A DNA stretch of 56,753 nt, filler included, from Dugesia japonica (Eukaryota): the NCBI GenBank assembly GCA_001938525.1. It is 5 parts of 5 records of this genome, joined end to end, with 100 filler letters (N's around TTAATTAATTAA, not from the genome) between each part and the next. Parts side by side here need not be neighbours in the genome. Positions count along the whole stretch, not along the records: positions 40,725 to 56,753 come from MQRL01626892.1; 4 more parts are not named here. One strand, written 5' to 3'. This document shows, piece after piece, positions 3,332-51,624 of this stretch. Below the pieces are notes generated by a model. It worked only from the letters and a program-made list of their open reading frames with translations. It did not search any database and was not told where the DNA came from. The position numbers were made by a program, and so were the translations under genes. Position 1 is the first letter of the stretch, and the number at the start of each line of letters is the position of its first letter.

Positions 3332-3653
3332 TAATAAATATCAAAATTTAATATCTTTAATCTTAGTAAGATTATAATAATTTTTAAATGAGATAAATAA
3401 ACAATTAAGTACAAGAACCCAAATTTATTTAACATCGACCGAATGTTATTGTTCTAGGAAGAATTTACTCTGTGTTCGTCTTACCAGAAACTTTAGAGTT
3501 GATGTAATGTGTTTAATCTTACTACTGCCTCTACAGACATAAAAAACTAATCACCATCGCGTGACATACATATCACCCAAATCTCTTTGATAGTTGAGAA
3601 AATACATAATAAAGAAAAACAAAACTAAAATTCCTTTACACCCAACATTTATT

Positions 3654-4057: not shown

Positions 4058-4794
4058 ATTTCTGTAATAACATAAATAATGAAAATTATAAGATTATAAC
4101 AGCATAATTAAAAATAATTCCATGTAATAAATATTGCCTAAACCAAAACGTCTGTTCGGCCTGCGGCCTATTATTTCTGATTCCCCGCTCCTAACATGTG
4201 AACCAGGAAGATGCCGATTAGAAATCAACATCTTTCTTTGTCCTCATGTTTCTAGAGTTCTCGGACGGTTTACTAACAAGAAAACAATTCAACTCACGAT
4301 ATTATCCAGGTGAATTGAGTTAAGATTAAACTTCCAGCGAAATGAATTGCATTAAAGAATGTCATAAAAAATTAAATTCTCTGACCAAAACTTTACCACT
4401 CATTTCCACATTCGTCTCATGATTCAAATAAACTCATTGCTTCCCATTACTATTATGATTATAATAAAGTTATTAAATTATAAACGCANCTAATATTTAG
4501 CATAGAACATTTAATTGACAAAATTTCACAAAGTAAACAACAAAACAAAAAATAATCAAGTAAATATATAGTTAAAGTGGATAATCGAGCTCCCGCAGAT
4601 ATCTATTTCTTGTACTCGCACGTTTACACATTATTTTCATCAACGCTCTCTTGCACATCGGTGCAATTTCTCTTTATTTAGCCATTTTCTTAGTATCACA
4701 CTGATTTTGTTCGTTCATTCATAATACATTAACACCCGATTATTTCATAAACAACTAGATTCAGATGAACTAAATTCAATTCAATCTATTTAAA

Positions 4795-18034: not shown

Positions 18035-18542
18035 TGGTTACATGACATTTAAACACGCGATAGATAATCACACGACACTTAAACACACGACATTTAAACA
18101 CACGGACATATATTCACAACAAAGTATGCATTTTAAACTTAACCAATACATTTTTTTTATAGCAACACAAGGTTATTTATAATTGTTTTATCAAGCCAAA
18201 ATTTAAGAATTTAAGAATAATTTGTATGTAGGCCTATAATTTTATCCAATACATATGAACATAATCAAACGAAAAGGTTGTAAAAGAGATTTGAAAATGT
18301 TTTGGTAAAAAACTAAGTTTTATTTTAAATTATTCAATAAATACTAATCGAGGATTGGCAGCAGGAATAAGAATTTTCAGTTGTCGGACGATCTTTGTTC
18401 TGAACCAGACAATACACTTGATATGTTGTTATTAAGTGTCGCATGTTAATCTGTCGCTGTTATTATACGTCCACGTGTTTAAGTGTCCGTGTGTTTAAGT
18501 GTCGTGTGATTATCTGTCGCGTGTTTAAATGTCGGCACACTG
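18035..18542. mobile_element. MITE with ~70-bp internally repetitive TIRs
   Basis: GACATTTAAACACGCGATAGATAATCACACGACACTTAAACACACG is mirrored at ~18475-18533; TTTAAA on both flanks. Confidence 0.85.
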
Positions 18543-22112: not shown

Positions 22113-22212
22113 NNNNNNNNNNNNNNNNNNNNNNNNNNNNNNNNNNNNNNNNNNNNTTAATTAATTAANNNNNNNNNNNNNNNNNNNNNNNNNNNNNNNN
22201 NNNNNNNNNNNN

Positions 22213-25200
22213 CCTAATTATGATCTATTATTATCACCGGATCACTTTCAACAAGCAACTCACAACGTTATGAAAAAGATGTGGGGCAAATTCATTATAT
22301 TTAGCCATGCATTGATTATCGAGATTTAAATGCAAAGACAAAGAAAGACACCTATTCATTACCAGATATAAACGAAATGTTAATGTTATTATACAATGCA
22401 AAGATATTTACGACATAGGATTTACGAAGTGAATATTGGTAAATAAAAATAGAAGAAGCAGATAAAGAGAAAACCGCGTTTTTAGCAGGTAAAGATTTAT
22501 ATCCGTTTGTGAGGATGCCATTTCGACTAACAAATGCACCGGCATCATTTCAATGAGCAATGAATTTTGTGCACATGGAATACCTCAGAGTATGGTATAT
22601 ATCGATGATTTATTAATACTTTCAACGACATTTGAGGAACATTTAAAAGATTTGAGAAATGTATTTGTACGACTGAGAATGAGAAACCTCAAAGTAAAAG
22701 TGTGAATGGGCAAAAAATTAAGTAACATATATTTTGGTCGCTTATTATCAGATCAAGGAACACAACCAGATCCAGTGAATATTGAAAAGATAAAGAAATT
22801 ACCAGTATCGAAAACAGTAAATGATGTACAAGTATTTTTAGGCATGCCGAACTATTACAGAAAATTTATAAAAGGATTTGCAACGAAAGTTAAAACAATT
22901 CAATCATTAAAGAGACAAGATTTAAAATTTATTTGGAAAGACGAGCATCAAAAGACATTCGAGATAACACGAGTAAAGTTGATGACGGCACCAATATTAT
23001 TAGTACCAGATTTTAAAAAAACCATTTATATTGGCAACAGACGCAAGCGGATATACAATGGGAGCAGTATTGAGTCAGCTAGACAAAAAGGGTCGAGAAC
23101 AAGTAATCGGTTATTCTAGTAAACCCTTTCAAGGTGCAGAGAAGAACTACAGTACAATGGAACGAGAAATTTTAGCAATTGTGAAAGCAGTAAGGCATTT
23201 CAATCACTTGATACTTGGACACGAACTAATAGTTTATACAGACCATCAACTGCTTACAATGATTGGACAAAAATTTCTACAGATAAATTGAATGGCAAGA
23301 TGGGCAATGAAACTACAGGAATATGCACCATTAGTGAAATACAAATCGGGTAAAGCAAATGCAAATGCAGATATGTCAAGAGCGAGATTTATAGATGGAC
23401 TAGAAGAGAAAGCGGAAACTACAATTTAAGACAATGAAGAGATTAAGATTCAGCAATTAATGAATCGAGAAATACGAACTTTATGTATGATATTAGCAGA
23501 AAGTAAAGGTTTTACAGGTTTCAAAAAGGATCAAGATGCTGATGAAAAGATTAAAATAATTCTAGATTGTCTAAAACATTACGATCTGAGTAAAGTTGAA
23601 TGCAATAAAAGCAAAAAAGAATATTTGAAGGAAGAGGTGGACGATACGCAATAGTTAATGTATGGCTGATGATGAAAGAGAGTGACAAAATTTTGTTAGC
23701 AATACCAAAAAGGAGACGAGCAAAGATTTTGGAACAATATCATAATGGAATATTAGGATGTTATATGTCATCTAAAAAGACAGAATCAAATTTGAGAGCA
23801 AAATATTATTGGCCACATATAACGACAAGTGTAAAAACATGGGTGGAACAATGCCAGATATGTGCAGCAAGTAGAGGAACAGGAAAAAAATTCAGAGTTC
23901 CGCTACGACCATAGATATAATAGCAAGGGATATAATTGGCCCATTACCACCAACTGACAGTGGAAATATATATATATTTTTTAACAGTTGTAGATTATCT
24001 ATCAAAATTTCCAGAAGCATTAGCGTTAAGAGATCAGAAAGCAGCGACAATCACCAAAGTATTAGTGGACACAGTGTTTAGTCGTTATGGATCTCCAAAG
24101 AAAATAATAACTGATCAATGAAAGAATTTTATGAGCGAGCTAATGAAGGAAGTTACGAGTTTCTTCAATATTTACATATAACAAACATCAGCATATCATC
24201 CGCAGACGGACGGAATGACAAAAAGATTCAATCAAACTTTTACAAGAATGCTATTGAGCTATGCTTCAAAGGATCAAAGAGAACGGGGCAAGCATTTGAA
24301 TTTATGCATATTTGCATATAGAATGGGAGTACATCCAACAACAAGAGCAGCACCGTTCAGTTTCATGTACGAAAGAAAGTGTAATATGCCTATTGACCTT
24401 GAATATCAACCAAAAATTTCACAATACATGGATGAAGACGATTATCTGACAGGCATGATGGAGCGAATGAAAGAAATGTGGATATTGGCAAAAGCAAACG
24501 CAAGATTTAGTCAAGAAAGTTACAAAGAATTACACGATCTTAAAGCAGAAGATCCTATATTTAAGAAATGAGATCTAGTGTTAGTTAACACACCGATAAT
24601 TGATATTGGCAGAACAGATAAATTAAAGAGACCAAATAAAGGGCCACATATGGTAATTGAAACAATAGCAACACATTTAAAATGAAAAGAATTAAAAAAC
24701 CTTCAAAGAAACCAAGTATCGTGCATGTGTCAAGATGCAAATTGGCAGTCAAGGAGACGGAGACAAATAAAGAAACTTTAGTAGAAGCAGAACCAAAAAC
24801 AGGTAAAAGAAAACGAGTTAAATTTAAATTAGACGAACCTAATGATGAACAAAGGTATCCGATCAGATCAAGACATCGTGTATTGAGGTTTACCGCAAAA
24901 CCAAGAGAAGGAATTTTAGGGGCTCAAGAACCAAACAAAGAAACTAATCTGTGCAAAATTTGTAAAGAGATGAGACCAGAAAAATACCTTTGAAAAAGAG
25001 TCAATTGCTAAAAATGTGTTATCAATTTTTCGAACCACACAAGATAAAATCGTACATGTAGATAGAGAGATTAATCAAGTGTTTTTACAAATGTGGAGAG
25101 AGAAGACTGATGTTAAAAGCAATGTATGGAAGTGGCAATTAAATTAAATATACAAAAGAAAAAATGTAGACAATGGTGTATTAACAATTTAACAAATGCG

Positions 25201-26270
25201 AGACGAATAAATATTAGTGAAATTAGATGTTTTCAATCATTTAACATGCTTATCAGAAACAAAACCATTAAGACTAAATATTGAATTAAAAACTGAGGAG
25301 ATTATGAGAAAGTCTCAGCTAAATAATAATCTGACTATAATTGAAAAAAGACGAGATATACTTAATGAATATTGTCATTCAGTGGAAATTGGAATAATTC
25401 AAGAGAATCAAATATATGACAATCCAGGATGCGGACAATATGGACCGAAAGGATATAGAATGGCAGATAACTGGAAACCATTGTCTAAACCGTGTTTACA
25501 AATTTCACAGAGAATTACAATGCGACAACAAGAAAGATGGACATTTAATAAATCAAATCGATAAGAGATAAAGCGAAACAAGGAAGCTCATTCGCCATGG
25601 AATTTAGAAGGAAATTGTAAAAATTTCAGACCTACAAAATATCCAATCGACATGACAATCGCAAAGAAATTATGTGGAGGCTGAAAAATTAATCTACATA
25701 CAGAGATTCAGTTATCATAAAAAAATGTGGAACAAAAGAAACGATGATTAATAACTAGCAAAATTCAAAGTGAAATCAGATGCAAATATTGTAATAAAGA
25801 GCGCATAGAAGCCAGGGTCGTAATAACGGAAAACAAATTAAAAGAGGTATGTCTGAAATGTATAATAATAATATAACTACAATTGAAAGAAGCTGAAGAG
25901 ACAATATGGGATTTTATTGATATGTATAAAGTGCAACCAAAAGTAAAGAAGTGTAATCGATGTGTAGCAAAGAAACTTACTAAATGTCCGATAGTGGCAG
26001 AAGATTTAGAGAATTTATGTGATAAATGTTTTCAAAAGACAGAAATTGAAGTCACAGACTCACTAATCATAATAGCACGAAGGAGACGCTGGTTGATGAA
26101 CCATTCGGTACAAGATAATCGAGAATGTCTCAAATCTAAAGTAGAAGATATAGTATAGTATAGATTTACAATAATCGAATGTTACTGGAAATCAGTAGAA
26201 ACTACGCTTAGCGAGAAACAGCTTGGCAAATGTATAAACTTTCTGTCAGGAGTATCAAGTATAGTTTCTT
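22213..26270 (+). mobile_element. Decayed Ty3/gypsy pol (RT-RNase H-INT) with a long Cys-rich C-terminal extension
   Basis: CIDYRDLN, RMPF.LTNAP, YIDDLL, FLGMPNYYRKFI, TDASGYTMGAVLSQ, YTDHQ, YYWP..CQIC, VDYLSKFPEA, IITDQ and YHPQTDG motifs; then ~1.5 kb of purine-rich coding sequence with CxxC pairs. Confidence 0.95.
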
Positions 26271-29320: not shown

Positions 29321-30875
29321 TGTTGGGGTTTTATCTAGGTAAGTGTACAAATCTAGGGTAATTGTCATAATAAAAACCCGCGAAGAATTTAATCTGGTGT
29401 CCCCGAAAAATACAGATCTTCGGAATAGAGTCGTTGACTCGAAATTCGAGTACAGATTCGCATTCCTTTGGTTCGGGTTCCTATTACGTGATACTCGCTC
29501 GATCCTTTAGATCTACTTATTCCTTATCAGATAACATTTATTAATTTATTATAAATCCTTTATTATATTTTTATTTAACTAAAGTTTACTAATTGATGTT
29601 TATAAACGTTTGATGGTATTAGTTTATTCAAAAGTTCCATTTTAACAACCTATACTTTAAGTAAGTTCTAGAACCGAAGTTATTGGGTAGAACATAAAAC
29701 AAAAGAATTGAACTAGTGAAAAATATATTGGATATGGCAAATTTTATTTGTTATACATACGCTTAGTAAATACGACAATTAATAAAACTAACATGACCTG
29801 AATCCCGATCCGGAGCCGGCACAGTAACTGGAGCTGGACCTCTTCGGTGGCCATCAGCGACTTTAGTGGTACCCCATAGCTTTCCATTTTCGAGTCGGGA
29901 AATCGTTGCACCTCCAAAACGAAAATCGTAATTACCTTGATTGAGAGTTTCTAATTGTCTTTGAAAAGTGATGATTTTTTATGATTTTTGCATCGGTATT
30001 TATACCAGTTTTTTGCTACACCCTCGTTCTTTTCATTGGCTAATTTTCATTCTTTTGCGTCCTATTGGTTGGTTATTTTAATTTCATCACATGATTTCTT
30101 CTGATGGGCCAGAATTTTGGAATTTGAGTGCAACTTGTCACAATTTTGTCACAACTTGCTACCTAGCATTTTTGAATTCCCTGATTTTTTCTGATTCGTA
30201 ATTCTCTTATTTGACAATTTTGAATTGACGAAAAGTCTCCATTTTTCTCACTTTTGTTGAAAAATTTATTTTCTTCTTTAAAATAAATCATTTTAATTTT
30301 ATATGATTTATCTTATTTAAATAAATAAATAATTTTATTTTATTTTCTTCATAAAATTAATTCGATGTTCATTTTTCTTTCTGATTTAAACTAATTTTAA
30401 TTTTGTTGCCTACTTCCATTAATTAATTTATTTTTTCTTTCTTCGATAATTCCTACATTAGGATTTCCTTCTTTTTAACTAATGAATCAGTTCCTTAGCC
30501 ATCGTTTATTATTTTCCTTCTTCTGATTATCGCTTCTTTACTTAGTCGGCTTTTTTATTTCTTCGTTATCCTCTGCTGTAGTTCTAGTTCTTTAATCCTT
30601 CGCACGAGTTTTGACCTTCTAATCCAATTTTATCTTTCGTCATTCTTCTTTCCAACTAGATTATGCCCTTTTTGGGTCTGACTTCTTCATTTTCTTTTCT
30701 TATGTAGATTTTTCGAATTTCGTGTTTACTTACGCCATTTTATTTGCCTTAATNNNNNNNNNNNNNNNNNNNNNNNNNNNNNNNNNNNNNNNNNNNNNNN
30801 NNNTATGTAGATTTTTCGAATTTCGTGTTTACTTACGCCATTTTATTTGCCTTAATCCGGTGTTTCACCCCAACA
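29321..30875 (-). mobile_element. Solo-LTR-like element (copy E, 1.55 kb)
   Basis: TGTTGGGG...CCCCAACA ends; 5' end TGTTGGGGTGAAACACC identical to copy C; CCAAT/TATA at ~29995-30075; shared 3' module. No clean TSD (TGAA vs CAAA). Confidence 0.8.
29744..29887 (-). CDS. 47-aa small ORF with a hydrophobic C-terminal segment, in copy E
   Basis: MESYGVPLKSLMATEEVQLQLLCRLRIGIQVMLVLLIVVFTKRMYNK*, in a GC-richer island just downstream of the TATA box. Confidence 0.3.
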   Translation of the reverse strand: MESYGVPLKSLMATEEVQLQLLCRLRIGIQVMLVLLIVVFTKRMYNK

Positions 30876-33279: not shown

Positions 33280-36200
33280 AGCCTTTACGAAGACGAGAGT
33301 ACCACTCAAAAACAGTTCATCTTGATAGCCTATTGTTCTCACACACTGATTTTCCATTTCAAAACTGAAACAATACAATACAAAGATTAGCCAATAAAAT
33401 AAACTACATCTGTCTGAACATAAAATATATTTGCATGGTCTGCCGTTCTCAATATAGGTGCTGTCGTCAGCATTTCTTTTAATTTCTTGAAGCTCTCTTC
33501 ACATTCTGAATTCCACTTTACTTTATCACACATCTTCTTGCTAAAGAGATCTTAGGAGATCTCTTGCTAAAGAGATCTTAATGACAAAACAATGAAAGCT
33601 AAATTATTGGTATGAGCCCTATAATAATTCAGCATTCACATAAACTGGCGAACCTCTTTCTTTGATTTAGGGCGCGGGGGTCTTGTATTATTGTAAATTT
33701 GTCTGTCATTGGGGAAACTTCTCCATTCTCGATCATCTTACATAGAAACTCGGTTTTAAACATCATAAGCTTACTCTTTAAGACTAGTTGCTAATTATTC
33801 TTTTAGTACATTTTCCAAAGTTTCAATATGCTCTTGAGTCCTATGTGAATAAACTATAATATCATCTAAAAAAGCAGCACTATTAGGAATATTTTTAAGA
33901 AAACTATCCATCATTCTTTGATAAGTTGCTGGTGGATTTTAAAATCTAAATGACATTCTTTTAAACTGATAAAGACCAAAAAGGAGTCATAAATGCACTT
34001 TTAGATCTGTGCTGGAATTTTATTGGAACCTGATAATATTTATTCTTTAGATCAATTGTACTAATATATTTTGAATTTCCTAACGAATCGATAATTTTCT
34101 CGATCTCTGGCATCGGATGGCAGTCAATGAGTGTCTTCATTAATTTGCGAAATATCCTGCGCTAATCTTAGTGTTCCATTTTTTGGAACAAATAAGGTAG
34201 GACTGGCATACGGACTTGATGAATTATATCTTCCTTAAGTAATATAACGATTTAATTCTTCATGGTATCTCGAAGCGAATGTGCCAATGGGCTTGAGAGT
34301 TATTGGCTTATCTGTTAATTGAATATTGAATTCCGTTGACCTTGTCAATCCTGGTTCGACGGATAAACGTCTTGTTAAAGTTCTACCAATTTTTTAAACG
34401 TTTGAAATAATTTATCTGGTAGTTCTTCATTGAGTTGGACGGTATTCCAATTTGAGATTGCGGATTCAGATTCTAGAGCTGATTGTACGATTATTTCTTA
34501 CTAATTTATCCATGAGCTCAGAAGATTAACGTGAAATGTTCTATCTTTTCTTTGTCCTTCCTGTGTCAACTTTATAGTTAACGTCTCCAAATTTTTTCTA
34601 CAATTTTATAGGGTCCCCGCCATCCTGACATAATTTTATTCGCAGATGTCGGTAATAAAGCTAAAATTTCATCGCCTGGGACAAATTGTCTCTTGATTTT
34701 TTATCACACCATTTCTTTTTTGATTTTTTTAAAGCTTTCTTGCTGTAACTTGCATTAATTTATCTTTTAAGTTTAACACAAATTCGCAGATGTTTGATTC
34801 AACCTCCTCTTCACCCAAGATATCTGTGTCAGCTTACGATAAAGGCCTTAAACATAACGAACATAGTACAAAAGAACTAAATCCCAAATTTCCATGGATT
34901 GGGGAACAGTAAGCATAGCATAAATATGGCAAGAATTCATTCCAATCTTTACCATCGGTATCCGCTGATAATTGCCTTAGCATTGCCTTTAGAGTACCAT
35001 GGAATGTTTCACATGTTCTGTTAGTCTGAGGGTGATATGAGGAAGTTCTGATGTGTTTGATGCCAAGAAAATTATATAATTGCATCATTATTGAGCTTAA
35101 AGAGTTCGTTGCCTGATCAGTAAGAATCTCAGTTGGTATACCTACCTTGCAAAAATAATGAGAAATATCTCTAGCCACGGTTTTTAACCGCATATTTGCA
35201 ACTGGTATAGCTTCTGGATATATAGTTACATAATCAATTATAACGATTATAAACCTGCTTTTTCTGTTTGATAGATTTAATAGTCCAATCATATCGATTC
35301 CAACTCTGAAAAATGGTCCACAAATAGTTGGTGTTGTAACAAGTGGAGCTTTGTTAACAACTAGCTTTCTATTAGCTTTTTGGCATTGGTAGCAACCTTT
35401 ACACCATTGTTTAATATAGTTTCCAATTCTGGCCAATTGAAGAACTTTTCAATTCTCTTTCGAATTTTATTTATTCCTGGATGACCTGTGGTAGGTACAT
35501 CATGAGCTTATTCAATAATTTTTCTTCGATACCTTTGAGGAACAACAACTTCAGACGTTTTAGAATTTCTAAACATGAAAATTTCATTTTCTAAGAAATA
35601 ATTGAAATGTTGTTCTAATGTTTCAAAACTCTCTTTAAGTGATTCGTCATTATTTTCAATTTTCAGCTTCTCTGGGTTTATTTCAGAGAGTTCATTTTTG
35701 TCTTCCGGTAAGTGTTCAACTGATACATTTTTAATAATTTCAGCATCTGAAGGGTATTTGTCAAAAGTTTCAGGAGGAATATCATCGATCGATAATATCC
35801 TAGGTTTATTAAGTTTCTCTTCCAGTTTACTACTCTTATTTTCCTCATTAGCTTTTATCGACTTTGATCTAGTTATTATTTCACATATATGGTCGATCTC
35901 ATTACCTAGTAGAAAACCATGCTTGCTTTCCATTACAATTGCTCTAGTACTCATCGGGTTTTTCTTCAATTTCCAGTTCAACATTTTCAATATGCGCTTC
36001 ATCAATTTTCCCCTTAGTCAAATAATCACAGTTTCACTAGTTAGATCCGAATTTCTTGTGGGCAAAATAACCACATTGCTACTCATTTAGTGCAATACTT
36101 TGGTACATGTCGCTGAACTCCACACGTATAACATTTTATTGGTTGATCTTTGAAGATTTGAATTGATTGTATTATTTGAATATCTTTTAAAGCCATTGGC

Positions 36201-36955
36201 TGCATCAAATCTATCCGCGGCTTTTACCATTTCTTCAATATTCTGATGTTCTATTTCTTCGATTTTTCTTAAAATGGAAACAGTATTTTTTCGATATTGT
36301 TCTTCCAATATAATTTCTTTAATTGCTTCAATATTGTTTGCATTTCTAGATTGGAAGCATCTTGCTAATTCTGATTTTAATTTGTGTAGCCATTCTACGT
36401 GATTTTCTGACTCGAGGTTTCGTATTGATCGAAATGTTTTTCTCTATTGTTCTGGATTCAATTTGAATCTTTTTAAAATCGCATTTTTTATAATATCATA
36501 ATTTTTTAGTCATCCAATGGTAATCTTAAAAAGGCTTCTCTAGCTTTACTTGTAAGGAGGGATTATGGAATATACTTCATTTGTGATGTTTGATTCCTTG
36601 AGTAGTAGGCCAACTCTCAAAATGATCTAAATATATCTCAATTTATCACCTTCGACATATGGTTTGAGCAATACGTTCGACATATTACATTGAAGATTTT
36701 GGGTTTGTCTTGCTTCTATTGCTAATCTTTTTTCTTCAAACTGAAATTTTCTTTGCTCTAATTCATTTTCCCTTCTACACTCTTCCAGTTCGTCTGGCCT
36801 TCTACGTTCATCAAATTCATCTTGTCTTATACGCTCATCGAGTTCTTCTTGTCTTCTTTTGTCGTATTCTATCCTCTCGTTCTTGACGCTTTTCTTCCAC
36901 TTCAAATTCCAATATTTTCAATTCGATATCGAATTGATTAGCTCGTGACGCCATT
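33280..36955 (-). mobile_element. Decayed Gmr1-like Ty3/gypsy element (gag-PR-INT-RT-RH order)
   Basis: On the minus strand: coiled-coil/SCAN-like gag (36900-36100), protease remnant FLLGNE, integrase (AHDVPTTGHPG, CYQCQ, GIDMIG, ILTDQ, YHPQTN; 35510-34600), then RT (SPYASP, NPPATYQRMMD, AAFLDDIIV ~33860) and RNase H. Confidence 0.9.
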
Positions 36956-37081: not shown

Positions 37082-37824
37082 ATTACGATGGTAAGAAAAT
37101 AATGACATTTTTTAACTTTTATTTTAAACTCGACCAATTCATGTCCAAATAACTTTTATTAATTGAAATAACACCTATTGCAATTGACACATACTTGCTG
37201 ACGGGAAATAAGTTAATGTATCTCGGTAGTATAGAATTCCTGTGTTTTGGATTCAATAAACTGTCGGAAATTATTTTAAGTTGCACTCTGGTTGTTAAAA
37301 ATTTTACCTTGCAGATAGAGTACATTTTTAAAAAAAAATGATGAGAAGTAGATGAGAAGTCCGGTGAAGAATGGTGTATGCTGCAAAATTTCGTACTCCA
37401 ACATACGCAACTTATTTTAATCGTTACTTGTGCAACGTGTGACTGTATATTGTTACGAAGATTAATAATACCTACTCTGTTGACCAATATCGGACGAAGA
37501 TTTTGCCTTTTTTTGCATCTTATCGATTTCCTGGTAATACTTATCTTTTGTAATTGTTTCTATAGGAATCAGAAAGTTATAATGAATAATGGATCTAACA
37601 TACCATTAAAATGGTGAGCATAATGTTTTAGTGAAGTTCTGTTTTTTTTGGAAAGTGTTTATGGGCTTGGTGCCGATCCAACCACTGAGGTGAAGACTTG
37701 CGATTTTCATCTATTTTTCATATGTCACTATACATTTCAAAATGCCGATTTTTTTGTTTCTCATTTATATCACACGGTACCAATTTTTCAAGTTTCTCAA
37801 CCTTGCCAAGCTGTTTCAGATAGT
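37082..37824 (-). mobile_element. Hsmar1/cecropia-like mariner, 3' part
   Basis: QWLDRHQAHKHFPK, SSPDFSSTSHHFF and LQGKIFNNQ...FRQFIESKTQEFY...LISRQQVCVNCN closely parallel the Hsmar1/SETMAR transposase C-terminus. Confidence 0.85.
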
Positions 37825-38378
37825 NNNNNNNNNNNNNNNNNNNNNNNNNNNNNNNNNNNNNNNNNNNNNNNNNNNNAATTGTTCACGGCAGATGGATGTC
37901 CCTGACCTTCTTTATCTGTTAGGCTTTCTTTTCCGCCTGTAAATCTTTTAAATCATCGTTGCATAGTGCGATTATTTACGGACTTTTGTCCGAATGTGCC
38001 GTTGACATTACGAGTAGTTTCTACAGCTCTATGGCTTAGTTTAAACTCGTATAAATAAATCGCACGCCATTACATGGAGGTTGATCTATTAATATTAAAA
38101 CAAAGACCAAATAAATATTATTTGGACCTGAGTTGTTTGAGTTAAAATCTAAAGGTTAAAAAACAACACTGTTTTTATTATACAATTTACTGAATTATTA
38201 TTGCAAAATATTCCTATTAATCAGCTTTAAAGTTACATTCTTGCGGTGCAATAGTTAATAACTGCTGATAAATTAAAATAGTTCTAGTAATCCATATTTC
38301 TGTGATTTTATTCAACCTGTAATTATGTTATGGAACAAACTTTAGCTTATCAAATTTTAGTTTCTTCAATCCAATAAT

Positions 38379-38633
38379 ATGATGAGTTATAGTTTATTGG
38401 TCGGTATTCATGACCCTGAAATGATGGGTAAAGTTGATAAAACTCCCAGTGATGAAGAATGTGCATTTAGTCCTGGTGAAGATGATGACACTGTCAATGG
38501 AGGCGCTGATGATGTTGTAGACTCTGCTGGTCATGAATCAGAGGGTGCAAATGTTACTTCGGATTCTGAAATTACTGGCGCTCTTCAGTCTATTAAACAG
38601 GGAGATAGTGCATGTAAGAACTTTGAATTATAG
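38379..38633 (+). other. Acidic ORF fragment, likely a DNA-transposon remnant
   Basis: D/E/S-rich 84-aa frame with no diagnostic motif. Confidence 0.25.
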
Positions 38634-39699: not shown

Positions 39700-40624
39700 T
39701 TAATTCCTAATTAATTCCTTGTTTTAATTAATTATCTTGTCCTAATTAATTCCTTGTCCTAATTAATTCCTTGTCCTAATTAATTATCTTGTCCTAATTA
39801 ATTCCTTGTTTTAATTAATTCCTTGTTTTAATTAATTATCTTGTCCTAATTAATTCCTTGTCCTAATTAATTCCTTGTCCTAATTAATTCCTTGTCCTAA
39901 TTAATTCCTTGTCCTAATCAATGCCTTGTCCTAATCAATTCCTTGTCCTAATCAATTCCTTGTCCTAATTAATTCCTTGTCCTAATCAATTCCTTTTCCT
40001 AATTAATTCCTTGTCCTAATTAATTCCTTGTCCTAATTAATTCCTTGTCCTAATCAATGCCTTGTCCTAATCAATTCCTTGTCCTAATCAATTCCTTGTC
40101 CTAATTAATTCCTTGTCCTAATTAATTATCTTGTCCTAATCAATGCCTTGTCCTAATTAATTTCTTGTCCTAATCAATTCCTTGTCCTAATTAATTTCTT
40201 GTCCTAATTAATTTCTTCTCCTAATTAATTATCTTGTTCTAATTAATTATCTTGTCCTAATTAATTTCTTGTCCTAATTAGTTTCTTGTCCTAATTAATT
40301 TCTTGTCCTAATTAATTATCTTGTCCTAATTAATTATCTTGTTCTAATTAATTATCTTGTCCTAATTAATTTCTTGTCCTAATTAATTTCTTGTCCTAAT
40401 TAATTATCTTGTTCTAATCAATTCCTTTTCCTAATTAATTCCTTGTTCTAATAAATTCCTTGTCCTAATTAATTATCTTGTCCTAATTAATTCCTTGTTC
40501 TAATTAATTATCTTGTTCTAATTAATTATCTTGTCCTAATTAATTTCTTTTTCTAATTAATTATCTTGTTCTAATTAATTATCTTGTCCTAATTAATTTC
40601 TTGTCCTAATTAATTTCTTGTCCT
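39700..40624. repeat. 17/18-bp minisatellite (TTGTCCTAATTAATTCC / TTGTCCTAATTAATTATC), ~50 copies
   Basis: Direct tandem array running into a gap. Confidence 0.97.
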
Positions 40625-40798: not shown

Positions 40799-41167
40799 AT
40801 GCACTCATCTTTAAACCGATCACAAGCCCCAACGAAAAATTTACGCGAGGATAGCGAGGATAGAGAGATCACCTGGGACCTATATAAATTGGCCAAAAGG
40901 TGTTGGGAGGCAGAAATGGCCACCGCGAACGCTAAAGTAAGGCGGTACAAAGCCAAATGCATAAATGTCCGCGACGAAATGAAGCTATTCCAGGATCAAG
41001 AGCGGTTCTGGAAAGCCCAGGTGGAATCCTTCGCTGAAATTATCCGGTTCAGCCATAACCGCGAGAATAAACTGGTTAAAGATATTCTTGTTTTAAAGAA
41101 AAAATCTTATTTGGAGCCCCTTATGATTGACAAGGGCACTCAAACTAAACTTATCCCCCACGGTTGA
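40799..41167 (+). CDS. LTR-borne coiled-coil protein ORF-X (122 aa), unknown function
   Basis: HSSLNRS..P.K..RE.S.D.E.TWDLY.LAKR.WEAE.ATA...QVESFAE.IR..H..ENKLV.DIL...LEPLMI.KGTQT is shared with 50975-51342. Confidence 0.75.
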   Translation: MHSSLNRSQAPTKNLREDSEDREITWDLYKLAKRCWEAEMATANAKVRRYKAKCINVRDEMKLFQDQERFWKAQVESFAEIIRFSHNRENKLVKDILVLKKKSYLEPLMIDKGTQTKLIPHG

Positions 41168-41295
41168 TATTTTAAAAAATATATGCATTTTTCTGTTGAT
41201 TGGTATTAAATTTTATTGTTATTTCTTGGTTTAGTTCATTGTTAATTGTGATTTTGTTACGCTTCACTTTACCTTGTTGATTTTCATATATTTTA

Positions 41296-41679
41296 GTGCC
41301 ACGCATTCATTTCCCGAATAACCTTAGAAGATGTCATCGCAATATGCGGTGTCTTCTTCTGGAAAGTCACCTAAAACGTAAGGCTGACAGAGCCATATTA
41401 AAACACCTGGCGCAACGAGATCAGTTAATAAAAAAATTAGACATCATCATAAAGAAACAAAACGACCTTGCCACCCAGACCAAGGCATTAGAAGCCGAAA
41501 CGAAACAATTACTGTAGCGAAAAATCGACTTCTTGAAGCAGTATATCGCGGATCGGTCCCGACAAATTGGCAATCCCATTGTAGCGCCATGGCACGACAG
41601 CGATGATATAGCTGCTTTCAACCTCGTAGTAACGTCCCCTGATCAGTGGTTGGATCCGGGAGCTTTGGATTTACTTTAA
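41296..41679 (+). pseudogene. LTR-borne ORF-Y (~127 codons, one premature stop at 41515-41517)
   Basis: TTTTAG|TG acceptor; PRIHFPNNLRRCHR...KIDFLKQYIADRSRQIG...DDIAAF...PDQWLDPGALDLL*, homologous to copies B and C. Confidence 0.75.
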
Positions 41680-41926
41680 ATACGTTTATTTCGAATAAAA
41701 TATTTGTAATCAGAATTGTATTTTTTTTTGAACAATAATAGGGAAAATACAGAACCCGAAATCAAAGGTTTATCGGTGAGTACCTTCCATTAAGAGTAAA
41801 GTCAACCGCCATAAACTGAAAACCTACCACAGGGACGGTAGGGTAAATTCTTGAAAGGGTTCCCCTGAGGGCTGTTTTTCCCCAGCCACCTTTTTTCGTA
41901 GCGCGACTCAGGTGGAACCCCAACAC

Positions 41927-42853
41927 CTTGTTTAACTGAAAATTAGTATAATAATTTTTTGTAAAGTACTTAATTTTTTTTTAAATACTTTAGCTGTATA
42001 GAAGATTGTGGTTATTTGGTTGTTGATGATGATTTCTTTTTTTATATATATTTTGCTAAGTTCAGGGGTCCTTTTATAGGATTTTCTCATACACCCCGGC
42101 ATCATTCCTATTGGTTTTTTATTTTTAGTTTGAAATCACGGATTTTCATTGGCGTTGGTGCCACTTTTCTGAAATTTCGTGGAGTTTTTTGTGATTCCGT
42201 TGGCAGTTATTTTTGGATCATCAGGTGATCTTTTGTTCTTTGTTATATTTTTATTTTTAGATCNNNNNNNNNNNNNNNNNNNNNNNNNNNNNNNNNNNNN
42301 NNNNNNNNNNNNNTGGATCATCAGGTGATCTTTTGTTCTTTGTTATATTTTTATTTTTAGATCTCCTATTGGTCCGATCTTGGGGACTTGGCAGCAACCC
42401 TCTGGAAGGTGGTAGGCTTTTCTTCTTAGTAATTTTAACTGCATCTTGATATTTTCTTATCCTGCTTCTTTCTGATTTCTCTGAGTGAAATTATTCAGAT
42501 AAAACGAATTTTTTGTTAATTTCGCTTCTTTTTTTATTTAAAATTAATTAATATTTTTCTTCTGTTAATTGATTGCTTTCATACTGATTTTCTTGGTTTT
42601 TATTATTATTTAATAATTCTTCTCAATTCCGATACCGATATAGGTTGCTTTATAACACTTAGTTCGTTGAACCCACCTTCGATGGTATTTTATTCTTCTT
42701 TACTGATTATTTCCGTTACAATCTTTCCAAATTATAATCGCTTTCTTCTTTTGAATTCCATTACAAGTAAATTTACAGGTTCTAATGTTCTTCTTTGCCG
42801 ATTCTGGATTTTTTGGTCTTATTACCTTTCTTCAGGGGTGTTTCACTCCAACA
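41927..42853 (-). mobile_element. Solo-LTR-like element, 5' (promoter) part (copy F), abutted by copy A
   Basis: rc terminus TGTTGGAGTGAAACACCCC; purine-rich start, several CCAAT boxes, TATATAAA at ~42041. Confidence 0.7.
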
Positions 42854-44380: not shown

Positions 44381-44764
44381 TAGAGCTTCTAATCAGCAGA
44401 TTAAAGGCTCTAACAATGACAATAAACTTAATTTGAAATTATTTTTGTTTTATTGATTTTAGTTGTGCTAATATATATATATATATATATATATACTAAT
44501 AAAAAGAAACAAAAAAATTTAAAAAATTTTACAAAAAATGGGGGTTCCCCATGATTCATCACCCCCTATAAAAATTTTCGAAGGTGCCCAATGACTCACC
44601 AACCCCAAAAATTCGGCGATGCCTCATCAAGGGGTGGAGCATTCCCTTCGAGGGACCCTGATTTGGTGCGCTCATATCTACCTACTACTAGACACTATAT
44701 AAATGTGTATATATATATATATATTTTACCCTTATAAAATATAATAATTCGTACTTTGTAATAC

Positions 44765-45880
44765 TGTTATGGTTCCACCTGAGTTACGGTTAGAAAAAAT
44801 ATGGCTAGGGGAAAAGACAGCCTTCAGGGGACCCCTTGATAAATTTACCTAACGTACCTAGTTAGGTTTTCGGCGTGAAGTTGTCGACTCTCATCGCCTA
44901 TTTAGAATTCACACTTGCACACCTTTTATTCGGGTTCTCTATTCCTCTTAATTCATAAGAAACGAAATTAAATAAGAAAATATTTATTCAGCTAAAATCA
45001 AAGGCCCCTAGATCTAGCCATTTGCAGGGCGCGTCTCGTAAAGTCGAACGCGGCCTCGTCGTCTTCACTATGCCATGGTGACCAGTCTTCAATCTCGAGG
45101 CGGGAAGATAGATCCGCGATAACCCTTCAGAAAGTTATTTTTATTAATTAGGATTAGATTCGCGCGACTCGCCAGCTCCATTTGCTTTTTAATAATGAGC
45201 TGCACTTTCTTTATTTTTTGGTTTTGGTGCCTTAAGTGGCTGATAAGCGCTCGCTCAACGCTTAGAGTAACGACGTTCGAGGAGAAATTTCTGGATAAGC
45301 CTATAGCATCTCCTAAGACTTGTAGGTAATCTTAGCCTTGTAACTAAACAGTGTAAAACAATCAAGTTAAAATTTAAAAACAGATTAGAAAATATAACTA
45401 TTTTATTAACAAGACAAATTAAGCTCTTTCACCATACAGTGAAAAAAGTGACATCAAAAGTGACAATTTCAAGAGCGAGGTATCTGTGTTGTTTTATCAA
45501 CCATGAGTGGTTGCAAAAGAATGCGATCGCGCATCCCTACCAAATCAGTTACCAGTTTATTTTCACGGTCGTGGGGGACCGGATTACGACAGCGAGTTAT
45601 TCCAACTGTTGCTTCCATATGCGTTCATGGACATGGGAAGCTTCGGCCTATAAACGGTGTTCTCGACAACAAGACTTATCACGGCTCAACTTGGCTTCAG
45701 CAATAGCAATCTCGGCCTCCCACTTCCTTTTAGATAGCCAATATANNNNNNNNNNNNNNNNNNNNNNNNNNNNNNNNNNNNNNNNNNNNNNNNNNNNNNN
45801 NNNNNNNNNNNNNNNNNNNNNNNNNNNNNNNNNNNNNNNNNNNAGATAATGCAAGCAATGGGTATTTTTAATCAAGACTA
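44765..45880 (-). mobile_element. Solo-LTR-like element, 3' part (copy B, more divergent)
   Basis: rc terminus CTCAGGTGGAACCATAACA; frameshifted ORF-Y (LPTSLRRCYR...PWHSEDDEAAFDF...WLDLGAFDF) and ORF-X (YWLSKRKWEAEIAIA). Confidence 0.85.
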
Positions 45881-45939: not shown

Positions 45940-46410
45940 ATATGTTTTAAAAGCAAAAGATCAGAATTGTTGTTCTTATTTTATTCATTTTTCAATATAT
46001 CGGTTATGCATTCTTCAGGAATAATAGTTCAGTAAATTCTGATTATAAACTTTGAAATAGCAATTAAAATTAAATTCATTTGATTAAATTCAATTTTCAT
46101 TGGATATTATAACTTCGAATTCATTGAAAATATTTTTTATGGTTAATTGTTTGCCAACATTAAAATAAATCGTATTTTTTACAAAAAAATTTTAAAAAAT
46201 TTAATCACTGATCTGTGAAAATAACTAAATAAACAATTTTATTTTAAAAAAAATGTTTAAAAAGCAAAAGATCAGAATTGTTGTTCTTTTCTTCATTTTT
46301 CAATATTTCGGCTATACCTTCATAAAAAATAGTTCAGTAAATAAAATTTAATCAGATGAATTTAATTTTAATTTCTATTTCAAAATTTATAATCAGAATT
46401 TACTTAAAAT
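45940..46410. repeat. Direct repeat (TGTTTTAAAAGCAAAAGATCAGAATTGTTG...) plus an inverted segment; possibly a Penelope pLTR remnant
   Basis: 45940-46040 matches 46253-46340; 46035-46090 is inverted at 46345-46405. Confidence 0.7.
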
Positions 46411-46906
46411 TACTTAAAAGAAAATTTTTTAAAGATTTTTTCTCAAGGTAACGTGACTTATCAATGTCTTCGTTAAACTTGCATTCTAACTGCAGGTCTC
46501 TGCTTATTTTTTTCCCTATACACATAAACATAGTAACAAATTAAAGACGACCCAATTATAATATAATATGAATGATTAAATATTATTATAAACAAATTCT
46601 CATTCCCTTTTTTACGAATTAAAATAAAAATGAATCCGGATCAATTTGAAATGGAGGTACGCTGTCGCAGATACGTGCATTAAGCAAGCAGTTGAAACAT
46701 TTTTGAGAAAAATTTTTAGAGAAAAATTTGTAGGAAAAAGGAACGATAAAATACAAATCAAAACTTCCAACAATATGGAAAAATACAGGGGGTATCTTTA
46801 CGTTGAACTATAAGAAGTATTTGAAAACATGCAAGGTGGCAAGAAGAACGAAAATCGATAAATGATATCCATTAAACAATCGGGTTAACTTAATTTAATT
46901 CATGAT

Positions 46907-47886
46907 TTGAACAATATTGAAAATCAAACCACATCTGAAAAGATTCAAAGAAATTTGGTAAAGTTAGCAATGAATGGTAAAATTTTAATTGGGGGTTCTA
47001 TTGTAAATGAAAATTCTATTGTAAATGAAAATATAAGCAATCAGACTCCTCGCTTCATATTATCAAATGAACTTCGTGCCAAGGAAGTTTTCAAAGAATA
47101 TAGACAACTAAAACATTTTCTAAAAGTAATAATAATTGACAAGGATGAAACTTGGGGTTGTGATATTATAGATTTGGTTAAAAAAATCAACCGAGGGTTA
47201 TAGATATATTTTAGTTTGTATAGACTTGTATACAAGATTTGGTTTATTGTATTCCAATGAAAAATAAAAATCAAGAATCTTTAAAAAAAGCTTATGAAAA
47301 TATATTTGAAGAAAATAATAGAATTCCAAATAATATTTTGTTTGATAAAGAATATGCTATTAAAAGTAAATCCATGGATAAATTTTTTAAGGAAAAAAAT
47401 ATTAATTTGTATCATACTGAAAATGAGGGTAAATCAGTTTTTGCAGAAAGATATATTAGAACTCTAAAAAATAAAATATGGAAATATTTTACATTAACAG
47501 GAAATCAAAAATGGGATAATAATTTATTACAAAAAATTGTAAATGAATATAATAATACAATTCATAGTTCTATTAAAACAACACCAAAAGAAGCATCTGA
47601 AAATTCAAATGTAATAAAAGAAATTATTAATAAACATAATAATGCTATTAAATATGAATTAGGGTCAATGTCATTTAAACAGAAATTTAAAATTGTGGAT
47701 AGAGTTAGAATTTTCAAATATAAATACAAATTTGAAAAAGGATTTACAGCCAAATGGACAAGTGAAATATTTATTGTTACAAAGTTCTACAAAACAAAAC
47801 CATTTACATATGGAATTACTGATTTGGATAATGAAAAGATTCTAGGTAGATTTTATGATAATGAGCTTCAGAAAACAGTTTTATAA
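46907..47886 (+). pseudogene. Polinton-type (c-)integrase, frameshifted near 47200-47240
   Basis: DETWGCDIIDL, YILVCIDLYTR, ILFDKE, KSVFAERYIRTLK, YNNTIHSSIKTTP, FEKGFTAKWTSEIF, GRFYDNELQK. Confidence 0.93.
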
Positions 47887-47907
47887 ATTTAAAATTAAAA
47901 AATAAAA

Positions 47908-48024
47908 ATGGGAAATACACAAAATAAAAATGAAGATGTAAAACAAGATGAAAAACAAGATGTAAATGAAAATAAAAAACCCAAAACATTTTGGAAATGG
48001 TTAATTACTGATACTTCTGAATAA
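47908..48024 (+). CDS. 38-aa Polinton micro-ORF with N-terminal MG
   Basis: AAAAATG context; MGNTQNKNEDVKQDEKQDVNENKKPKTFWKWLITDTSE*. Confidence 0.5.
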   Translation: MGNTQNKNEDVKQDEKQDVNENKKPKTFWKWLITDTSE

Positions 48025-48189
48025 ATGACAAGATAACAAGAAATAAAAGAAATGGAAGAAATTCAATTTTTAAAAAATAATTTAAATTCAATAAATCAGA
48101 GTATGACAAATTTGGTTTTATTAAATTGGGCTATTTCTAAATTAAATTAAAATTTTTTTATAGAGTGTTTCAAATAGTTTATATACAAA

Positions 48190-48964
48190 ATGTTTAATAA
48201 TATAAATCAAGCTCTTTCGGGGCATAAACAAGAACCACTAATATGGAAAAATAATACTAGTAAATTTAAACATGAAATTTTCCCATCACAATTTAGATGT
48301 TTAATTATTGGGTCATCTGGTTGTGGGAAAAATGAATTATTATTAAGAATGTTATTAACTCCAAATTTTATAGATTATAATAATTTAATTTTATTTTCTA
48401 CAACAATTAACCAATTTGAAATTCAATTATTAAATTATGGATTTGAAGCAGTATTAACCAAACAAGATTTGTTGTTTATATTTGAAAAACAACATTTGGT
48501 TCCAGATGGTACTCCACAAGAAATCATTAAATGGTTTATAGATAAAAAGTACAGATTGCAGGGATAAAATTCAAATTACAATTAGTAATAAACCTAGTGA
48601 AATTATACCTTGTGATAAATTACCAAATTTTAAAAATTTGATTATTTTCGATGTCGTAAATGAAAAAAATCAACAGATTCAAAAATCTTATTTTACTCGA
48701 GGAAAACATAATAATTGTAATGTTATTTACATTTCACAAACTTATTATGATTTGGATTAAAACAGTATAAGAAATAATAGTAATTGTTTCATATTTTTTA
48801 AACTAGGTAAACGAGATAAGGATAATGTTTATCATGATTTGTTTAGTAATATTTTTTATAATAAAGATGAATATGATTTTGAAACAAAACATCATTGGAA
48901 AACAAAATATAATTATTTTTATTTGGATAGAGAAAAAGAAGTCTTCATGGATAATTTGTTTTGA
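48190..48964 (+). pseudogene. A32/FtsK-like DNA packaging ATPase, frameshifted
   Basis: RCLIIGSSGCGK Walker A, LIIFD Walker B (~48640), YFTRGKHNNCNVIYISQ motif. Confidence 0.92.
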
Positions 48965-49009
48965 TGTTTATCTACAATTGCAATGAAATTAAAAATGAAA
49001 TTGTAATTA

Positions 49010-49598
49010 ATGGAATTAAATTCGAATCATTAACAAAAATATAACAAACAAGTATCAAATTTCTTCAACCTTAAAACCTGTGTTGTCTGAAAATTTAAAT
49101 AAATTTAGTATAAATAAATCACGAATATCTCTTGTTGTAAAAGATGACAAAAAATATTTTTATATACATCATTTAAATAAATTTGTTCCATTTGATGATG
49201 AAATTTTAAAATTAATGTTTGGTCATGGTTCAGATGATTCAAAAGCTAGAAAAATTTATTTGAATGAATTTGATATAATATTTTATAAATCAAATTATTT
49301 AAATGCATGTAAACAAGATTTGTCATTTAATAAATATTTTAAATCAAAAGAAGATGTTGAAAATAAAGATGAACATGAAAATAAAAATGATGTTGAAAAT
49401 AAAAATGAACATGAAAATAAAAATGTTAAACAAGGAAATTCCATTAAACTATTTGAAGATTTGGTTAGATTAATTTCGGCCCAAAAAGCAGGACATACAA
49501 ATTTAGATAATGAAATTAAAAATGTGACTGGTGAATTATTAAATAGAAATTTAATAACAAGAGATAAATATGATAAATATAATATTAAGAAAGCTTAG
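49010..49598 (+). CDS. Polinton hypothetical protein
   Basis: Long ORF; the C-terminus LISAQKAGHTNLDNEIKNVTGELL resembles the AGN...NEI...EL motif I recall from uncharacterised Polinton proteins. Confidence 0.65.
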
Positions 49599-49746
49599 TT
49601 TATTGATGTTGTAAATTTACTTTTTAAATAACAATTTACATTTACAATAACAATTTACATTTTCAATAATAATTTACATTTACAACATCAATTATAAATT
49701 ATTATTGAAAATCTAATCAACCAAGCTCAGGCTTTGTTTAATAAAA

Positions 49747-50224
49747 ATGTCTCATCAATTTTTAATATTTGGTAATGAAAATAATTTGGAATTAAATTTA
49801 ACAACTGCTTTAAAATTACAAAGAGAATATGAAATTGGTTTAATTTGGTTTTCTACTTATAACATGATTTTTAACATTACAACTAAAAATAACAAGTATA
49901 CAATAAATAATGTAATAAAAACAATTACACCAGGTTCTTATGAAATTAAACATTTGGCTGAAAAGTTGGTTCCAGAAATTATACTAACTTGTGATGTTTC
50001 TACTAGAAAAAATGTAATTGAATTGAAAGAGAAATTAACATTTGAAACTACTAGTTTTTTTAATACAGTTTTGGGATTTGAAGTAAAGGAATATAAACCC
50101 ACAAAATATGAATCTCTAAATAAAGTAAACATTATAAATATAAATTCAATGAATATTACTTGTAATCTGGTTCAAGGTAATTATTTAAATTCTAGTGAAT
50201 ACAATATTTTACATTCTTTACCTT
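49747..50224 (+). pseudogene. Minor capsid (penton) gene, 5' part
   Basis: Beta-rich; YEIGL...YNMIFNIT..NN, PGSYEI, LGF, ITCNLVQGNYLN...ILHS pattern of Polinton pentons. Confidence 0.8.
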
Positions 50225-50464
50225 TGTTGGGGTCCCACCAGAGTTGAATGAAGATGTTTGTGGCTGGGGAAAAACAGCTCTCAGGGGAACCCCTTCAAGA
50301 ATTTGACCTAACGCCCCTAGGTTAGGTATTCAGCTTATGGTGGTTGACCCCTCACTTAATGGGAGATGCACGCCCACAAACCTTTGTATTTGGGTTCATT
50401 ATTTTCCATATACTTACACAAAGATTTAAGATAATGATATTTACAACATTTATTAAAATGACAA

Positions 50465-50864
50465 TTATAATTCGTCTAGCACGCCAGGGTCTAGCCACTG
50501 GTCTGGGTCGGGCATTAAAAAATGGAAGGCCGCGACATCATCACTGCCGTCCCATTGGACCCAAGTTGGCTGCCCCATCTGGCGGGAAAGGTCGGCGATG
50601 TACTGTTTCAAGAAATCTATTTTCCTTAACAGTATTTGCTTGGTCTCGGCCTTGGTTTGGTTTGCCAACTCATTTGGCAAAATGAGTTGGTTTGCCAACT
50701 CTGTTTTTTAACTGTCAAATCCAATTTTTTTATTAATCGATCCCGCTGAGTCAGATGTCTAAGAAGGGCCCGGTCTGTTTTATGCTTTTAATGGCACTCC
50801 ACCAACAGACGGCGCATGATACGATGGCATCGGTGGAGACTCTTAGGGAAATTGATACGAGGCA
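50465..50864 (-). pseudogene. LTR-borne ORF-Y (premature stop and small duplication)
   Basis: TTTTTAG|TG acceptor; PRINFPKSLHRCHR...KIDFLKQYIADLSRQMG...PDQWLDPGVLDEL*; AATAAA follows. Confidence 0.75.
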
Positions 50865-50974
50865 CTAAAAGAGATTTTGATTATTATAGGGTAACTTGAC
50901 GCAAGAATTTAAATGAAACCTTAAGATAAATTCGTAAGAAAATTTTAGACAACACATTTATTTACAATGAAAAA

Positions 50975-51342
50975 CTAATGCAATTTAGTTCCAGGGGTCT
51001 GAGTGCCCTTCTCGATCATCAACGGTTCGAGGGGTATACGTGTTCGGAGATGTAAGATATCATCGACTAGTTTATTTTCAAGGTCATGGTCGGACCGGAT
51101 AACTTCAGCAAAGGATTCAACCTGTCTTTTCCAGGTTCGTTCCTGCAGGTGGGAGGCCTCGGCTTCTTTCCCGAGAGCGATACATTTTTTCCTATATCTA
51201 GTCATCTTACTATAGGCAGTGGCTATCTCGGCCTCCCATCGGCGTTTTGCAAGTCGATATAGGTCCCACGTGAGCTCTATATCTTTGCTGGGTTCCCTCA
51301 TCGATTTGGAAGGAGCTGTGGAACGATTTAGCGACGAATGCA
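50975..51342 (-). CDS. LTR-borne ORF-X (intact coiled-coil protein)
   Basis: CTTTTAG|TG acceptor; homologous to 40799-41167; stop followed by AATAAA. Confidence 0.75.
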
Positions 51343-51624
51343 CTAAAAGAATTTGTAAACCATCAAACATCATAAAATGAACTATTATTTCTACGACGAA
51401 TATTTCATGGTGTATTTACAACAAAAAAAAATATATAAAAATTTCTTTTGTAAAGAACGTCTAATGAAAACAATTTGGAGACAACAGAATTATTTTATTG
51501 CAACCTACACAAAGTGCATAAACCCTTAAGGGGTGCTTGTAGAGTTCGAGGCCGGTGCGGAATTCTCAGAGTCCTCGCTACCCGAGTGCTCTTTTACTTC
51601 CCAGAGCAAATTATTGATGAATGT

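Follow-up and report, generated by a model that had tools for sequence, protein, structure and literature searches.

ORF-X and ORF-Y are best read as once-selected accessory genes of a multi-copy unit with TGT...ACA ends. This unit is likely a giant, 3.8-kb solo long terminal repeat (LTR) of a Gypsy-like retrotransposon, from which both genes are likely spliced to a common leader, with X a predicted binder of the host light chain LC8. We put the probability of this combined reading at roughly 0.55. From the DNA sequence we infer the LTR identity, the splicing and translation of the genes, LC8 binding and function.

The window, by which we mean the whole 56,753-nt stretch analysed, contains exactly three copies of the X and Y pair by self-comparison, with A on the plus strand and B and C on the minus strand (Table 1). 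The original prediction treated these frames as intact, which fails for four of the six: Y of A, B and C and X of B carry stops or frame breaks, and the intact frames are X of A and X of C. ORF-Y is thus broken in all three copies, with several frame breaks in B, while X of B has stops at 45650-45648 and 45599-45597 plus one frame break. The 5′ portion of B is missing, lost in an N gap. X and Y are unrelated when compared with each other (probability 0.1). Y has a basic N-terminal half and an acidic-aromatic C-terminal tail.

Table 1. Positions of the repeat units, their genes and their signal-like motifs along the window.
Feature	Position	Strand	Remarks
Unit E	29321..30875	-	1555 bp; same 5′ terminus; CCAAT/TATA; 47-aa ORF; no X/Y
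ORF-X, copy A	40799..41167	+	open, 122 aa
C-terminal block of X with LC8-type motif, copy A	41117..41149	+	conserved through silent changes
ORF-Y, copy A	41297..41679	+	starts behind acceptor-like TTTTAG ending 41296; in-frame stop 41515-41517
AATAAA of A	41694..41699	+	232 nt before element end
Folded non-coding 3′ end, copy A	41745..41925	+	ends CCCCAACA, then CCTT; U5-like (putative)
Unit D	41926..42853	-	5′ end related; has CCAAT and TATA boxes; truncated at the end of copy A; X/Y not visible
Copy B	44765..45746	-	X 45746-45469 broken; Y 45344-44988 broken; folded 3′ end 44945-44765
Decayed Polinton/adintovirus-like element	46889..50224	+	integrase-, ATPase- and penton-like ORFs
Copy C, only complete unit	50225..54065	-	3841 bp; ends TGTTGGGGT...ACCCCAACA
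Folded 3′ end, copy C	50225..50415	-	common fold with A, B and E
ORF-Y, copy C	50465..50865	-	stop 50790-50788; short duplication with frame break
ORF-X, copy C	50975..51343	-	open; behind acceptor-like TTTTAG
ORF-Z	51625..51873	-	82 aa, Arg-rich; ATG 2 nt behind acceptor-like site; single copy in window
34-aa basic ORF	52090..52194	-	ATG 3 nt behind acceptor-like site
Candidate splice donor, C	52515..52523	-	GTAAGC at 52522, preceding base A; 1 of 19 equal-score sites
Promoter-like motifs of C	52970..53040	-	TGACGTC (53037), CCAAT (53022); lacks a strict TATA match
A-rich 5′ kilobase of C	53089..54065	-	U3-like (putative); ends in inner AAAACCCCAACA at 53089

Selection on the encoded proteins is evident from the way the copies differ. 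Between A and C, nucleotide identity is 61% in X, 61% in Y and 33% in the spacer, and the mismatch fractions at codon positions 1/2/3 are 0.36/0.22/0.58 in X and 0.27/0.16/0.62 in Y. On ungapped segments, pN/pS is 0.34 for X between A and C (bootstrap 0.24-0.45; 116 codons), 0.41 for X in both the A-B and the C-B pair (83 codons each), and 0.19 for Y between A and C (0.14-0.26; 115 codons), with silent sites saturated (pS 0.72-0.93). In the five other frames the ratio is 0.84-2.37, except for the antisense frame with the same third positions (0.38-0.61). X of A and C are identical at 73 of 116 residues, compared with a mean of 39 and a maximum of 54 in 2000 neutral simulations, in which X was mutated at random to equal DNA distance; the frame stays open in 1.1% of such simulations. 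Conservation is spread over the whole of X, at 3-9 identities per 10 residues.

The protein conservation that the original prediction had seen across three divergent copies is therefore real, with pN/pS well below 1 in the codon alignment (0.19-0.41) and identities exceeding the simulations. The peptide signatures on which it relied are also present in the alignment, namely HSSLNR with third-position changes between A and C, and KR.WEAE.A.A and W...DD.AAF...WLD.G retained in B. Both proteins were under purifying selection in the lineages leading to the copies, a solid conclusion from these comparisons that does not extend to the present copies. Calling the proteins selected and functional was thus correct in its first half, for the ancestral lineages, and wrong in its second for most copies, with four of six frames broken. 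The further description of X and Y as coiled-coil proteins is weak: heptad periodicity appears in X at 57-98 and 1-35 (3 of 12 segments, p 0.03-0.04) and in one of eight segments of Y (p 0.02), all uncorrected. X has sub-threshold matches to BRE1 (E 0.012) and, among PDB sequences, to tektin (E 0.41).

Copy C defines the mobile unit as a single 3.84-kb insertion with TGT...ACA ends. The original prediction had recognised neither this bounded element as the carrier of the genes nor their acceptor-like starts. It is flanked by CCTT (50221-50224) and CTTT (54066-54069), which agree at three of four bases, and GC content is 0.41-0.52 inside its cassette versus 0.22-0.23 on both sides. Its inverted ends match exactly over 9 bp (about 17 with mismatches), with no longer alignment of the ends, and TG...CA termini with a short inverted repeat (TGTTGGGGT...ACCCCAACA) are found in both C and E. 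The 3′ terminus is common to A, B and C and the 5′ end to C, D and E, the first ~300 bp of the 5′ kilobase of C aligning to D. A, B and D have one end only, with CCTT behind the 3′ end of A, GTAT at B and TATA at D. E shows no target duplication (TGAA/CAAA), and its diverged 3′ folded end is recognised by nhmmer at E 1.2e-6. No transposase and no ORF longer than 132 aa was found in C, which therefore cannot mobilise itself. Summed contig depth in one DNA run reaches 26424 over X of A, 9896 in the next bin and 210278 in the 3′-end bin, and 3005-4124 over X of C with about 1100-1200 over the upstream cassette, where the single pieces listed have 4-16; these depths mark a large dispersed family, though they give no copy number.

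Copy C lies within a decayed Polinton/adintovirus-like element, whose last ORF it cuts at 50224. From 54066, AT-rich sequence resembles the cut remainder and is accompanied by a protease-like ORF. The Pfam matches of this element are under the cut-off (rve E 0.027, Pox_A32 E 0.031), and the names penton-like and protease-like are tentative, based on motifs. As a bounded insertion with defined ends, copy C argues that X and Y are not host genes. A host gene, or a locally duplicated host gene family, could account for the few partial RNA matches (13 reads at the Y end of A and 21 in X of C, in one run), but C interrupts another mobile element between defined ends, four of six frames are broken and the repetition is very high, which leaves this origin highly improbable. 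X and Y were also considered as Polinton/adintovirus genes and rejected: C interrupts a Polinton-like ORF and differs from it in GC, and the AG(T) termini and 6-bp duplication of such elements (PMC8097293) were not found. Further AT-rich ORFs lie at 49020-49598, 55371-56041 and 56181-56693 in the Polinton/adintovirus-like region (46889-56753). A separate GC-rich segment at 44540-44691 ends in CTACTACT, like a Polinton terminus (AGT motif); its depth in the DNA run is very high (48426 at 44661), and RNA reads match it.

From 5′ to 3′, the units consist of an A-rich segment, promoter motifs, ORFs, AATAAA and a folded segment. The first 0.7-1 kb is A-rich, and CCAAT/TATA in D and E and CCAAT with a CRE in C lie 0.7-1.05 kb into the unit. 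AATAAA precedes the end by 232 nt in A, 224 in B, 230 in C and 222-230 in E, that is, in all four units having a 3′ end. At the level of motifs only, this is the U3-R-U5 order of promoter, poly(A) signal and distal segment.

The most conserved part of the unit is non-coding, which the original prediction had missed. The stretch behind Y (41745-41925 in A) is 76% identical between A and C, compared with 61% in the genes and 33% in the spacer, and ends sharply in ...AACA in all three copies. For the last ~190 nt, three helices with 26 pairs are predicted, with 91% of 100 cells paired across four sequences; 8 of the 26 pairs are changed on both sides, a count as high in 4 of 500 shuffles, and slid controls are 28-52% paired. 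G-U variants point to the sense strand as the RNA. Single-copy folding z-scores are -2.6, -0.8, -1.2 and -3.1, and Rfam contains no match. The folded 3′ end is thus a moderately supported RNA structure, predicted from the same four sequences. In retroviral-type elements, U5 is the segment behind the poly(A) signal and is found in RNA only at the 5′ end of the full-length genome.

With a folded segment behind the poly(A) signal and TG...CA ends, a giant solo LTR is the best reading of this anatomy, and one that we hold with modest confidence. Excerpts of PMC6431247 describe solo LTRs of long-LTR Gypsy elements (Ogre, planarian Burro) that are similar in their TG...CA ends and short inverted repeat, in a short target duplication (imperfect in C, lacking in E), in internal promoter motifs and a poly(A) signal near the end, and in size, the Ogre LTRs spanning 1.9-6.5 kb. 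The extra ORFs described there for Ogre/Burro are in the internal region, whereas here several genes lie inside the unit and the gag-pol parent was not found. Several observations speak against a solo LTR. The four-base flanks of C differ at one position and those of E form no duplication, the solo-LTR model does not account for the inner CCCCAACA at 53089, and a gene-holding R region of about 2.5 kb would be very unusual. No PBS, PPT, gag or pol adjoins any of the seven ends of A-E in the window, and the full-length parent is therefore not seen, as expected for solo copies. No link to the unit ends was found for either Gypsy remnant (22.2-26.3 kb and 33.2-37 kb). The inner AAAACCCCAACA of C at 53089 equals the last 12 bases of unit E and may be the remnant end of a nested relative.

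A different element class would be a non-autonomous, integrase-type (Ginger-like) DNA transposon that has lost its transposase, with X and Y as accessory genes or 3′ exons. Ginger1 and Ginger2/Tdd, in the excerpts of PMC2836005, have TGT termini, a 4-bp duplication and spliced genes, with many families in Hydra, and introns and additional C-terminal domains are known from Ginger1 genes. The unseen parent LTR element and the sharing of both ends by the 1.5- and 3.8-kb units would also fit. Against this, the inverted repeats of 9 bp (about 17 with mismatches) are shorter than those of Ginger1 (40-270 bp) and Ginger2 (45-297 bp; same excerpts). The targets also differ: the flanks are CCTT/CTTT at C, CCTT at A and GTAT at B rather than the CCGG or CCGT/ACGG of Ginger1, and the RTATAY of Ginger2/Tdd was not found, AT-rich flanks occurring only at B (GTAT) and D (TATA). 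Pfam yields no OTU, Ulp1 or PHD match, and C has no Gypsy-integrase-like transposase, although this absence is expected for a non-autonomous copy. A sense-strand G-U fold behind the poly(A) signal is also easier to understand as U5. We regard a Ginger-like origin as unlikely.

For a solo LTR, the anatomy would imply the following scheme of expression. Transcription would start from a promoter about 1 kb inside the unit and terminate at the poly(A) signal, ~230 nt short of the end, and the cassette of the 34-aa ORF, Z, X and Y would sit between these signals in an expanded R region, each gene being reached through its own acceptor from a common leader. The folded last 190 nt would serve as U5, acting as RNA solely at the start (5′ end) of a full-length genome.

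The starts of the genes suggest how splicing may operate. In all three copies the homologous part of Y opens with TTTAG; that of X opens with TTTTAG in C, where A reads TTTTAA and so supplies its own ATG. Conserved codons are already found ahead of the first internal ATG. The two bases after the acceptor are TG in X and Y of both A and C, and TT in Y of B; within the window, 13 of 215 acceptor-like sites (6%) are followed by TG, and TTTAGTG occurs nine times on both strands. Since X and Y start with TG behind an acceptor, a leader ending in A would create both start codons. Splicing of X and Y to these acceptors is thus a prediction from motifs, and X could also be made without it, given that X of A, which lacks the AG, has its own ATG and that an in-frame ATG lies 10 codons upstream of X in C. 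RNA reads from three runs placed on the window number 67, 454 and 83, of which 92-93% fit only in part, and none was found at a joint among the 15 joints shown of 120. Diverged relatives are the source of the reads at the Y end of A and within X of C, and likewise of the 6-31 loose-ended reads over the 3′ end. An index of sequencing runs listed no RNA run containing this sequence.

A similar arrangement is known from the env gene of Drosophila gypsy and springer, a downstream gene without its own start that is reached through an acceptor and whose start is possibly made by splicing. Excerpts of PMC2585583 and PMC12992720 describe the gypsy env start codon as made by splicing AT to G, while X and Y would join A to TG in a splicing event that is itself predicted. 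The products differ as well: gypsy env is an envelope protein, whereas X and Y are soluble-looking proteins of 120-130 aa.

Alternatively, one coding exon farther upstream may be spliced in phase 1 to either X or Y as alternative last exons, in which case the real proteins would be longer, whatever the element class. Both acceptors are in the same phase, conserved codons precede the first internal ATG, and phase-1 donor-like sites occur in an ATG-led ORF of 45 aa at 52457. Such an exon would leave the TG start of both exons unexplained, at a frequency of 6% among acceptor-like sites, and protein searches found no longer protein containing X, a weak argument. This arrangement appears rather unlikely, and a start codon built from an A-ending leader and TG is preferred. 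Two small ORFs of the units have a hydrophobic stretch: the 47-aa ORF of E (29744-29887, minus strand), where it is C-terminal and the ORF lies directly behind a strong donor-like site at 29935, and the 45-aa ORF of C (52457-52320).

As the original prediction had noted, X of A and C carries a terminal KGTQT motif. It lies six residues before the stop, in a C-terminal block (PLMIDKGTQTK in A, PLMIEKGTQTP in C, PLMVDKTTQIP in B) in which most codons have silent changes. The motif cores are IDKGTQT, IEKGTQT and VDKTTQI, B retaining the motif as KTTQI with I at +1. In A, C and B, respectively, the residues are D/E/D at -4, K/K/K at -3, G/G/T at -2 and K/P/P at +2. According to excerpts of PMC6607443, LC8 binders have an H-bonding residue at -4, a basic one at -3, a non-bulky one at -2, branched ones at -1 and +1 and a strand-breaking one at +2. 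All three copies show these traits except at +2 in A, with a TQT-type anchor (TQT in A and C, TQI in B) whose outer residues, at -1 and +1, are branched. K.TQT arises by chance in 86 of 100000 shuffles of X (0.086%), a figure that ignores the other motifs one could have noticed. In one DNA run, 27 contigs cease matching right behind 41149, where the block ends.

Binding of X to host LC8 is therefore a plausible prediction and probably correct, being better supported by the match of -4, -3 and -2 in three copies, and of P at +2 in B and C, to the binder preferences. A serious but lesser possibility is that X does not bind LC8, KxTQT being an incidental feature of a folded C-terminal strand. Since conservation extends over all of X, a conserved pentapeptide is unexceptional; B carries I at +1, and many peptides with a TQT anchor fail to bind LC8 (PMC6607443, excerpts). 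However, -4, -3, -1 and 0 all fit in the three copies through silent changes, conservation ends directly behind the motif, and position +1 favours branched hydrophobic residues. The original prediction had gone further and linked X to dynein. This is less likely, as the same excerpts describe LC8 as a dimerisation hub rather than a cargo adaptor, and a role of X in dynein transport ranks far below LC8 binding.

If X does bind, LC8 may clamp two X chains together beside their helical region. X resembles KxTQT clients of LC8 (PMC6607443, excerpts) in having the anchor and its flanks at the end of a helical protein; it differs in being element-encoded, with binding predicted. The most likely use of the genes would be to regulate multiplication of the element itself, through counter-silencing or transactivation. 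In flies, LC8 also dimerises a transposon-silencing complex, and Panoramix is a host silencing factor (PMC7861614); the link from X to silencing is an analogy, Panoramix being a fly host factor. The layout of Y, with its basic half and acidic-aromatic tail, recalls viral transactivators, and the promoter of C has a CRE, which may serve as a lead only.

MMTV sag and HIV nef, small accessory genes that are expressed by splicing and associated with the terminal repeat, encode products that use short motifs to engage host proteins. The two genes lie in U3 upstream of the promoter, whereas X and Y lie downstream of the promoter motifs and have no sequence similarity to them. A stronger version of our account is improbable on present evidence: an LTR retrotransposon would have made its terminal repeat a gene cassette in R, with orphan proteins produced via alternative acceptors and splice-built starts, expressible from solo LTRs, and one of them recruiting LC8 against piRNA-type silencing.

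X and Y appear to be orphans in the libraries searched; these consist largely of microbial sequence and contain few animal repeats, so blanks are weak evidence of novelty. X, Y and Z had no match in Pfam (42 ORFs) or PHROGs (8 ORFs), X of A none among 5.8 billion proteins, the X alignment none among longer proteins and the Y alignment none in the protein library. A two-copy X profile gave one match among 1.84 billion representatives (E 6e-4), a long repeat protein with a methyl-accepting/HAMP look that was judged spurious. For X, the Atlas returned unnamed clusters at 0.90, with low recognition. Scans of viral, genome and metagenome contigs found no relatives of the family, and the 44 loci from the viral scan did not match the 3′ end, X or Y; one candidate was rejected as a bacterial contig matching within an unrelated enzyme ORF. 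A weak X-like match at 26212 in the window was discarded, as the profile did not recover it.

Long LTRs and extra ORFs are already known (PMC6431247, excerpts). The literature matches listed showed neither several genes arranged between the promoter and the poly(A) signal of a repeat nor an LC8 motif in a protein encoded by an element, and they included no retrotransposon accessory protein binding LC8, no genes inside retrotransposon LTRs and no account of this repeat family; Repbase may already contain the repeat. Accessory proteins of animal transposons are rarely described. If our reading is correct, an abundant repeat family carries orphan proteins in its terminal repeat, which solo copies could still make, and one protein engages a conserved host hub, offering a direct test of element-host conflict in a host that, judging only by AT content and repeat types, resembles an early-branching animal. 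If LC8 binding fails, the result would be an unannotated gene-bearing repeat family, mainly of interest to repeat curators.

Other repeats surround these units. At 22200-26270 (plus strand), a decayed Gypsy pol (RT, RNase H, integrase) continues into a long extension rich in Cys, which contains several CxxC pairs. The decayed Gypsy-like element at 33300-36950 (minus strand) has a weak SCAN match in gag (E 0.003) and an integrase upstream of reverse transcriptase, a Gmr1-like order. A 17-bp minisatellite of 53 copies (39705-40624) lies directly upstream of A across N gaps, and three MITE-like inverted-repeat pairs of 53-76 bp occur at 18044-18533, 37108-38163 and 46028-46407. An exon-like PIP5K match at 38379-38633 (plus strand; E 2.7e-5) is possibly a host gene amid these repeats.
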